Shown in pieces: positions 7,127-7,541 of a stretch of 64,000 bases of DNA. A program made the position numbers and the translations under genes. The notes beneath the pieces are model-generated. The model worked only from the letters and a program-made list of their open reading frames with translations, searched no databases and was not told the origin of the DNA. Source of the DNA: an uncultured Clostridia bacterium (GTDB taxonomy: Bacteria > Bacillota > Clostridia > TANB77 > CAG-508); NCBI GenBank assembly GCA_944387435.1, contig CALXEW010000006.1:2837-66836 (forward strand), written 5' to 3'. How positions within the stretch are numbered: position 1 is the stretch's first letter; each line of letters starts with the position of its first letter.

Positions 7127-7178
7127 AAAACACAAAAAAGACAGCAACAAAACCTATCTCTTAGGTTTCATCACTATC
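7127..7178 (-). terminator. intrinsic-terminator-like hairpin within the leader, copy 1
   Basis: Sense GAUAGUGAUGAAACCUA-agaga-UAGGUUUUGUUGCUGUC followed by UUUUUUGUGUUUU. This is a 17-bp stem with 5 G-U pairs, which can form only on the gene-sense strand. Confidence 0.5.
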
Positions 7179-7210
7179 TTTTTCATCTATTTTTCTTGTT
7201 CTTTTATTTA

Positions 7211-7279
7211 TTAATAACCTACTTGTGTGTGTGTGCGTGTGTGTACAGCCTCAAGGCTTACAAGTTTTACTTTTTTCAT
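7211..7279 (-). CDS. leader peptide MKKVKLVSLEAVHTRTHTQVGY (uORF containing the CA tract)
   Basis: ATG 4 nt after GAAAGGAAAG. Conserved in all five cassettes as MKxxK[LH]VSLEAV(HT)n. Confidence 0.45.
   Translation of the reverse strand: MKKVKLVSLEAVHTRTHTQVGY
7224..7243 (-). repeat. dinucleotide tract, 10 units: (TG)6 CG (TG)3 on plus, which is (CA)3 CG (CA)6 in the sense direction
   Basis: Counted directly from the sequence. Confidence 0.95.
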
Positions 7280-7541
7280 GTTACTTTCCTTTCTTTTTTG
7301 TCTACATTTCATTTTTCTTTATTCTATACTTAAAAATTACTTTTGTAAATATTTTTTCATATTACATTTTTATTACAATTTTTAGTTTTCACTTTTTATC
7401 ATAAAACATTTTTTTATTAATATAATATTAATAGTATCCACCATTTTGTCAAATGGTTTTAATTACTATATATTATAAATAAAAATACTTGATTTTCTAT
7501 TGCTTTTATAATATCATATAAGTGTTTACAAAGGAGGAATT

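Follow-up and report, generated by a model that had tools for sequence, protein, structure and literature searches.

A candidate phase-variable transcription attenuator with an (AC)n leader tract ahead of five genes for surface proteins in an uncultured Clostridia bacterium from the gut

Known leader-peptide switches and related systems

In Streptococcus gallolyticus, the pilus locus pil1 is controlled by GCAGA repeats in a leader-peptide gene that lies upstream of a terminator (Danne et al. 2014, PMC3894217). A longer leader peptide with its stop in or near the hairpin results in high expression, and a stop at least 28 nt upstream results in low expression; this mechanism was established with a terminator deletion, an ATG/Shine–Dalgarno (SD) mutant, and a "3 STOPs" mutant (PMC3894217). 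The pil3 locus combines the same repeat, leader open reading frame (ORF), and terminator, and its high-expressing variants carry out-of-frame repeat changes (PMC3894217). In the literature searchable here, such a leader-peptide attenuation switch is cited only for the S. gallolyticus group, and no mention of a module with (AC)n was found for Clostridia in these searches. The system described in this article comprises five leader units with an (AC)n tract, each upstream of a surface-protein gene, in a stretch of 64,000 nt (the window; contig CALXEW010000006.1 of GenBank assembly GCA_944387435.1, positions 2,837 to 66,836) from an uncultured Clostridia bacterium of the gut. All five loci are probably phase-variable transcription attenuators. 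A preliminary description of this DNA, made from the sequence alone, had regarded the architecture as undescribed, wrongly so, as it was demonstrated with pil1 and pil3. New here are the taxon, the dinucleotide repeat unit, an invariant 15-nt anchor that is conserved at the nucleotide level and translated in two different frames, and the use of one module with four output couplings.

The window units resemble pil1 and pil3 in consisting of a promoter, an SD and ATG that start a leader ORF with the repeat, a terminator with a T-run, and an SD ahead of a surface-appendage gene, and in being present at several loci per genome. In both systems, gain or loss of repeats moves the leader stop, and ON would correspond to a stop in or near the hairpin and OFF to one that lies ~28 nt or more upstream. 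The leaders share no sequence similarity, meaning that the window system is analogous and not homologous. The repeat unit is AC (2 nt) as opposed to GCAGA (5 nt), and the polarity differs in that one ON frame and two OFF frames are predicted for the window, whereas both out-of-frame classes are ON in S. gallolyticus and only one class is wild-type–like. Unlike pil1 and pil3, the window units contain a built-in stop trap right after the tract as well as an invariant 15-nt anchor, and their module recurs, with further kinds of output coupling, at ~200 distinct loci. Where S. gallolyticus has sortase/LPXTG pilus operons, the uncultured gut Clostridia bacterium has monocistronic genes that encode a pilin-like N-terminal helix.

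Three further systems share single features with the window units. In Neisseria opa genes, CTCTT repeats in the signal peptide–coding region cause translational phase variation by simple sequence repeats. Here as there, a repeat near the 5' end of an ORF sets the frame, which applies to the 47 in-frame fusions described below; in the window, however, the repeat belongs to an upstream ORF of its own and can act only by way of a terminator. Phase variation of opa is mentioned in PMC3745409. With trp/his attenuation, the window units have in common that the position of a ribosome on a leader ORF would decide on terminator formation, but they contain no alternative antiterminator hairpin, and their input is a heritable change of DNA length instead of tRNA charging. 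In the cwpV-type system of Clostridioides difficile, a phase-variable terminator in the 5' leader is set by DNA inversion. This likewise switches a surface protein stochastically ON or OFF after initiation by an intrinsic terminator in the leader, yet by site-specific inversion, whereas repeat slippage and translation would do so in the window.

Architecture of the five leader units

The feature is carried by the minus strand, on which the copy 1 unit extends from position 7349, where the −35 hexamer starts, to 7127, where the U-run ends. The 17-mer GTAAGCCTTGAGGCTGT occurs five times in the window, always on the minus strand (7261, 23428, 25155, 48223, and 59151; shuffle expectation 0.07), and every long CA tract of the window belongs to one of these five leader copies. 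The order of elements is common to all five: a TTTACA-16/17-TAxAAT promoter, the SD and ATG of a leader ORF coding for MKxxK[LH]VSLEAV(HT)n with the (AC)10–11 tract inside, a terminator, an AGGAGG, and the gene. Herein, the 5' part of the leader is formed by an SD-like AAAGGA, the ATG, six variable codons, the anchor, and (AC)n, and the 3' part by the hairpin with its U-run, a spacer of ~60 nt, AGGAGG, and the main ATG. When the five upstream regions are aligned, conservation starts abruptly at TATTTACAAA (the −35 element) and spans the leader plus the first ~50 codons of each gene; farther upstream, the regions are unrelated. The promoter-like TTTACA-16/17-TA(G/A)AAT matches the consensus in 10 of 12 positions and has the same position in the alignment in each copy; a scan by consensus found no promoter-like site on the sense strand between terminator and gene in any of them. 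The 17-mer matches, the alignment, and the promoter scan thereby bear out the earlier statement of five copies with the same elements in the same order.

The proposed mechanism is as follows. From a sigma-70–type promoter, a leader of ~190 nt would be transcribed that holds the slippage-prone (AC)n tract in its short ORF, followed ~45 nt past the tract by a strong intrinsic terminator and then by the SD and start of the surface-protein gene. Since the frame of entry into the tract is constant, the tract length would set the frame of exit. With n = 3k + 1 or 3k + 2 (OFF), a ribosome would stop 3 to 13 nt past the tract and more than 30 nt before the hairpin, so that the terminator could fold and transcription would end. 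With n = 3k (ON), it would enter or cross the 5' arm and block the hairpin; RNA polymerase would then read through, and the gene would be translated from its own SD. One AC unit gained or lost at replication would flip each locus independently, allowing up to 32 combinations for the five loci. The elements are located at the following window positions.

7321..7349, minus strand: copy 1, promoter-like site (TTTACA 7349–7344, 17-nt spacer, TAGAAT 7326–7321)
7211..7279, minus strand: copy 1, leader ORF as assembled (22 aa, MKKVKLVSLEAVHTRTHTQVGY and stop, with the SD-like AAAGGA ahead)
7245..7259, minus strand: copy 1, invariant 15-nt anchor AAGCCTTGAGGCTGT, directly 5' of the tract
7225..7244, minus strand: copy 1, (AC)10 tract with one A-to-G interruption (ACACACACGCACACACACAC); OFF frame (3k + 1)
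7161..7163, minus strand: copy 1, third-frame stop TAA at the 5'-arm/loop boundary, used if n = 9 or 12
7127..7182, minus strand: copy 1, intrinsic terminator, 20-bp stem AAAAGATAGTGATGAAACC / GGTTTTGTTGCTGTCTTTT with U-run (−26.9 kcal/mol, z −10.9)
23299..23514, minus strand: copy 2, leader unit (promoter 23514–23486, leader ORF 23446–23384, terminator 23344–23299)
23390..23411, minus strand: copy 2, (AC)11 tract, OFF; ON-frame stop TAA 23292–23290, past the U-run
25026..25253, minus strand: copy 3, leader unit (promoter 25253–25226, leader ORF 25173–25111, terminator 25071–25026)
25117..25138, minus strand: copy 3, (AC)11 tract, OFF; ON-frame stop 25019–25017
48095..48333, minus strand: copy 4, leader unit (promoter 48333–48305, leader ORF 48241–48179, terminator 48140–48095)
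48185..48206, minus strand: copy 4, (AC)11 tract, OFF; ON-frame stop TAG 48117–48115, at the loop/3'-arm boundary
59024..59240, minus strand: copy 5, leader unit (promoter 59240–59212, leader ORF 59169–59101, terminator 59069–59024)
59115..59134, minus strand: copy 5, (AC)10 tract, OFF; ON-frame stop TAA 59053–59051

Exit frames and terminator hairpin

The exit frames were computed by simulating n = 7 to 14 in each of the five copies, which reproduced the frame table of the preliminary description exactly. For n = 3k + 1, the case of copies 1 and 5 (n = 10), the ORF ends with a TAA at +11, and for n = 3k + 2, the case of copies 2, 3, and 4 (n = 11), with a TAA or TAG at +3; the OFF-frame stops are thus found 3 to 13 nt beyond the tract. 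With n being 10 or 11 throughout, all five loci are OFF in this assembly, as had been stated. The third frame (n = 9 or 12) is open up to +61 in copies 1 and 5, ending with a TAA at the 5'-arm/loop boundary, and up to +67 in copy 4, which has a spacer 1 nt shorter than the other four copies and a TAG at the loop/3'-arm boundary. In copies 2 and 3, it is open up to +97, past the U-run, and still codes for the hydrophobic stretch IGFVAVFFAF. One correction concerns the copy 1 tract, counted earlier as 10 units: it is interrupted and reads ACACACAC-G-CACACACACAC, with a longest perfect run of 6 units.

On the sense strand, the hairpins of the five copies have folding energies of −23 to −27 kcal/mol (z −7.6 to −10.9), compared with only −5 to −11.5 kcal/mol on the antisense strand. 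The hairpin dominates the fold of the full leader, and neither the minimum free energy (MFE) nor the centroid fold contains a competing antiterminator structure. The asymmetry between G-U pairs on the one strand and C-A mismatches on the other, from which a sense-strand RNA hairpin had been proposed, is real, as is the replacement of a G-U pair in copy 1 by A-U in copy 5. In relatives, compensatory changes occur in 8 of 20 pairs, with frequent exchanges among U.G, U.A, and C.G, and these changes indicate that the hairpin acts as an RNA structure. At the gathering score, Rfam matched only tRNAs in the window and no cis-regulatory RNA family; a permissive search of the leader gave best matches with E values of 0.18 to 0.43, far below gathering.

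The module in relatives and its output types

An exact-pattern scan of one genome per species yielded more than 102 stretches, 80 of which were listed. Those listed come from the guts of humans, rabbits, chickens, and other hosts and represent at least 45 species-level metagenome-assembled genomes (MAGs) of uncultured Clostridia; one stretch lies on a complete chromosome of 1.55 Mb. To sample leaders independently of the tract, metagenomes were scanned with the 3' arm of the terminator, TAGGTTTTGTTGCTGTCTTTTTTG, which gave 0 matches. For this reason, a pattern with synonymous variants of the anchor was used, which returned at least 120 metagenome stretches and 16 viral contigs of IMG/VR. After removal of duplicates, the module set taken from the matches listed comprises 200 distinct instances with usable flanks. 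Their common unit consists of an SD and ATG, usually 5 to 7 codons (range 4 to 14), the anchor, (AC)n, and ~20 nt with stops in two of the three frames. At least nine module loci are found in one MAG, and five in the 64 kb of the window. According to where the open frame leads, the instances are divided as follows.

Type A, 47 instances: the open frame is the gene itself (in frame, e.g., at n = 18 in L006 and n = 15 in L094; also L080)
Type B, 87 instances: the open frame leads into a strong intrinsic terminator, past which lies a gene with its own SD, as in the window
Type B', 7 instances: the open frame traverses a terminator-like hairpin and goes on
Type C, 18 instances: the open-frame stop overlaps the ATG of the next gene, after an SD (stop-start coupling)
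Other, 41 instances: in many of them, which form one family, an SD (AGGAGGAAGT) pairs in a hairpin with ACTTCCTC directly ahead of the next start

Type A is classical translational phase variation. Type B' is clearest in four leaders from L019 and L102, where the ON frame runs through the hairpin into an ORF beginning KGITLISLIV without a separate SD or ATG. The 3' arm of the L019 and L102 hairpins codes for a hydrophobic stretch, and this arrangement would be a combined transcriptional and translational switch. In the SD-hairpin family (L103, L113, L116, L225, L232, and others), the next start is the GTG or ATG of small ORFs beginning MIPxC, and the open frame of the cassette traverses the hairpin. 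This points to a fourth type of output, in which a ribosome would unmask the SD.

The contigs classed as viral that carry the cassette are L223 to L238, all from IMG/VR. On one of them (L237) and at the MAG locus L007, the cassette is stop-start coupled to an ORF of 127 to 143 aa that matches the C-terminal tip of the tail-fibre family phrog_2712 (E values 2e-23 and 2e-11), suggesting phase-variable receptor-binding tips. Six cassette-coupled ORFs were compared with PHROGs, of which two match (tail fibre) and four do not. Four metagenome contigs (L240, L244, L250, and L253) start within the tract or the hairpin; assembly evidently breaks off at such leaders, the cause being either the repetition of the ~250-nt leader or a heterogeneous tract length.

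Frame logic of the terminator-type leaders

In all 87 type B leaders, the open frame ends in the hairpin, after it, or at most 15 nt before it. Its stop is distributed over the leaders in the following way.

5' arm: 38 leaders
Loop: 6 leaders
3' arm: 30 leaders
Beyond the hairpin: 10 leaders
At most 15 nt upstream: 3 leaders
Farther upstream: 0 leaders

This pattern spans nine hairpin sequence clusters with spacers of 33 to 120 nt. The clusters were obtained by average-linkage clustering of hairpin alignments; a previous clustering of leaders by shared 8-mers had given one family owing to A-rich low complexity and was replaced. Within the largest cluster, which comprises 25 different spacer lengths, 43 of 44 members hold a frame open. 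Of 85 homologous and nonhomologous leaders, 83 have no stop in the ON frame ahead of the hairpin. In the other two frames, this stretch contains 3.0 stops on average, with only 18% of these frames stop-free past +21, and the last OFF-frame stop is located 21 to 49 nt upstream of the hairpin in most leaders. An SD and ATG are present in 83 of the 87 terminator-type leaders. The preliminary description had named beforehand stops in the third frame of related leaders as the result that would speak against a switch; in these relatives, the third frame is open, and the idea that tract length sets the frame and that each locus switches independently is supported by this comparison.

Tract length variation

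Tract lengths in the 200 instances extend from n = 6 to n = 21, with 67/71/62 instances in the three classes of n mod 3. With the start codon of each instance assigned individually, 65 of 195 are ON and 130 are OFF; this one-third share fits a free drift of the frame. The variation described here is variation between assemblies. Of 73 pairs of loci whose flanks are at least 97% identical, 69 differ in n, a proportion that is inflated because duplicates with the same n had been removed beforehand. A single locus with 100% identical flanks occurs with n = 9, 11, 13, 17, and 18. Alleles of ON length (n = 12) exist elsewhere in the hairpin cluster of the window (L023, L044, L046, and L057).

All five genes are also carried by the ENA contig BRZ_EL NODE_271 (112.8 kb; BRZ_EL sample, assembly ERZ24773313), probably from the same strain or sample. 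Over the 12 kb compared, the sole difference to the window is one AC unit in copy 5 (n = 11 compared with 10). Copy 5 has n = 11 in four other assemblies; one of them (L247) can be aligned over 3,116 nt with 0 mismatches and a single 2-nt gap, which is the AC unit. The copy 2 ortholog L246 has n = 10 instead of the 11 of the window, and at loci for the same protein in other assemblies copies 2 and 5 vary between 10 and 11 only, both of which are OFF. An ortholog of copy 4 (L076, 94.5% identical over 2.5 kb) has n = 7, and in the single usable contig with the same protein copy 4 is identical to the window. For copy 3, the only usable contig is the same-strain one, with n = 11. The interrupted tract of copy 1 is unchanged in three other samples, which fits a stabilization of the tract by the interruption.

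The anchor

The 15 nt AAGCCTTGAGGCTGT are found directly 5' of every tract and are essentially invariant. The exact anchor is present in 131 of 138 matches to a pattern that permits 128 synonymous versions; its codons are rare in this genome, and the exact version would accordingly be expected at a share of 0.0009. Furthermore, ~30 instances translate the anchor in another frame, as K-A-L-R-L-Y followed by (Thr-His)n. In the 1.77 Mb of DNA examined, neither the 12-mer core of the anchor without a tract nor an (AC) tract of at least 6 units without the anchor or a near variant was found. Taken together, the exactness among synonymous versions, the rare codons, the reading in two frames, and the constant association with a tract place the constraint on DNA or RNA and not on the peptide. 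The anchor might raise or limit slippage, act as a recognition site, or be the mark of a copying mechanism.

Evaluation of the switch and its alternatives

The anatomy of the units, the RNA-level hairpin, the hypervariability of the tract, and the conserved frame logic are established. That translation would prevent termination is inferred from the precedent of S. gallolyticus pil1 and pil3. Several points weigh against such an attenuator in the window. The coupling of ribosome and polymerase may be loose in some Firmicutes, although the S. gallolyticus result shows that coupling can suffice. The leader ORF has a weaker SD (AAAGGA) than the gene (AGGAGG). At the five window loci, n = 9 or 12 was not encountered, the few orthologs found having n = 7, 10, and 11 only, and at least two of the five, copies 1 (interrupted tract) and 3 (frameshifted gene), may be decaying or locked. 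A shuffle test with one representative per hairpin cluster gave a product of P of ~10^-3.4 over nine clusters, which is moderate because the leaders are related; the asymmetry between frames and the tolerance of indels are the stronger arguments.

A phase-variable tract might also act by other means than ribosome-dependent antitermination, that is, on mRNA stability, Rho access, or downstream translation, with the hairpin as a constitutive leaky terminator or stabilizer. The same module does work purely translationally elsewhere, as in-frame fusion (47 instances) or by stop-start coupling (18 instances). In the window, however, the ON frame ends 57 to 95 nt ahead of the strong SD of the gene, so that there is no direct translational link; the ON-frame stop follows the hairpin and not the gene start across all spacer lengths and hairpin clusters of type B, and the hairpins have canonical U-tails. 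An output of this kind is considered unlikely. Classical amino-acid attenuation, in which His and Thr codons of the leader sense the supply of charged tRNA, had been offered as an alternative in the preliminary description and is suggested by (His-Thr)n being encoded ahead of a terminator. It is disfavored to the point of being very improbable: the repeat is perfect as nucleotides and uses only CAC, which makes up 13% of the His codons in this genome; the uniform n mod 3 means that the exit frame is not conserved; no antiterminator appears in either fold; and a ribosome stalled in the tract would be at least 45 nt from the hairpin. In addition, the ~30 instances with the anchor in another frame read the tract in another register, and the genes code for surface proteins instead of His or Thr biosynthesis.

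The leaders could, alternatively, be evolutionary relics of in-frame N-terminal fusions, with the third frame inherited and the genes constitutive or silent. In favor of this, the homologous leaders L019 and L102 run through the hairpin straight into a pilin-like ORF, the third frame of copies 2 and 3 keeps its hydrophobic stretch, and the copy 3 gene is broken. The open frame has, however, survived the many indels that separate the 25 spacer lengths of one hairpin cluster, it is also kept in clusters with unrelated hairpin sequences, the tracts are still perfect and polymorphic, and a strong terminator without a downstream promoter would silence the genes for good. Hence, a relic is regarded as improbable. 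That the leader merely codes for a functional short peptide, or that tract differences are assembly artifacts and the likeness to a switch is coincidental, is scarcely credible. The apparent conservation of SLEAV(HT)n and the origin of the data from MAG assemblies may invite such a view, but the anchor is conserved as DNA and not as peptide, considering its two frames and rare codons, and tract differences recur in many independent assemblies.

A possible portable cassette and its implications

The unit of SD and ATG, 4 to 7 codons, AAGCCTTGAGGCTGT, (AC)n, and two out-of-frame stops may, rather tentatively, be viewed as a portable phase-variation cassette that is conserved at the nucleotide level and has been recruited at ~200 distinct loci in at least 45 species-level gut Clostridia genomes and on viral-classed contigs. 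It would have four outputs, namely in-frame fusion, antitermination, stop-start coupling, and SD unmasking, and its anchor would have its own function as a cis-acting element of DNA or RNA, perhaps recognized by a dedicated factor. This larger proposal is a possible, though doubtful, extension of the attenuator reading.

Known phase variation in gut commensals mostly concerns invertible promoters in Bacteroides. The present findings suggest that uncultured gut Clostridia with small genomes have a large layer of repeat-driven switching, whose targets are surface proteins and, on viral-classed contigs, ORFs resembling tail-fibre tips. Such targets bear on IgA escape, phage escape, and phage host range. 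The leader-peptide attenuation switch thereby appears as a design that is reused at many loci, and the cassette, being compact and self-contained, is attractive as a synthetic stochastic switch. As a practical matter, gene callers and MAG pipelines will misannotate such loci, and contigs tend to break there.

Downstream genes and genomic context

The five genes downstream of the leader units are listed below.

6014..7083, minus strand: copy 1 gene, 351 aa, AGGAGG SD at 7083–7078; pilin-like N-terminal helix and FGE-sulfatase–like C terminus
22264..23235, minus strand: copy 2 gene, 323 aa; pilin-like N terminus
23828..24962, minus strand: copy 3 gene, split by a frameshift into 24962–24465 (165 aa) and 24523–23828 (231 aa)
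46610..48034, minus strand: copy 4 gene, 474 aa; large metagenomic family without a name
57848..58963, minus strand: copy 5 gene, 371 aa

The N termini of the five products are nearly identical, (K/Q)GITLIALVITII(V/I)LLILAGVSIAMLTGENGILTQA, and the C termini diverge, some of them being FGE-sulfatase–like. In copy 3, the 165-aa part has the pilin-like N terminus, and the 231-aa part is homologous to the copy 1 protein (E 3e-8); the gene is split in the gene calls of the same-strain contig and of one other assembly as well. The preliminary description had called the genes pilin-like, a label that proves weak. Four of the five proteins match Pfam N_methyl with 16.2 to 19.7 bits, below the cut-off of 21.2, and copy 1 has no match. 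The putative cleavage context KG|ITLIALVITI has Ala at residue +5, where Glu is characteristic of prepilins. An NCBIfam search of the five proteins returned nothing relevant, and among the annotated ORFs of the window there is no prepilin peptidase or assembly ATPase. Because of these four observations, a pilin identity of the genes is not established. A protein homology search yielded thousands of homologs, all metagenomic and none with a functional name.

The window is ordinary chromosome of a low-GC (28%) Firmicute with fab/acc, pnp, queA/tgt, thyA/folA, a spore photoproduct lyase gene, tig-clpP-clpX, rpe, rsgA, and a few transposases. The five genes sit singly as inserts between housekeeping genes. 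Transposase genes lie near or adjoin copies 1 and 4, at window positions 4640–5710 (minus strand), 48729–49583 (minus strand), and 51099–52352 (plus strand); their types are YhgA-like Transposase_31, PDDEXK_2, and IS605 OrfB/TnpB-like. A tRNA cluster at 12991–13241 (minus strand) consists of Phe(GAA), Asp(GTC), and Val(TAC). An AMP-binding enzyme is encoded by two overlapping ORFs at 8409–10146 on the plus strand (8409–9662 and 9640–10146), possibly as the result of a frameshift.

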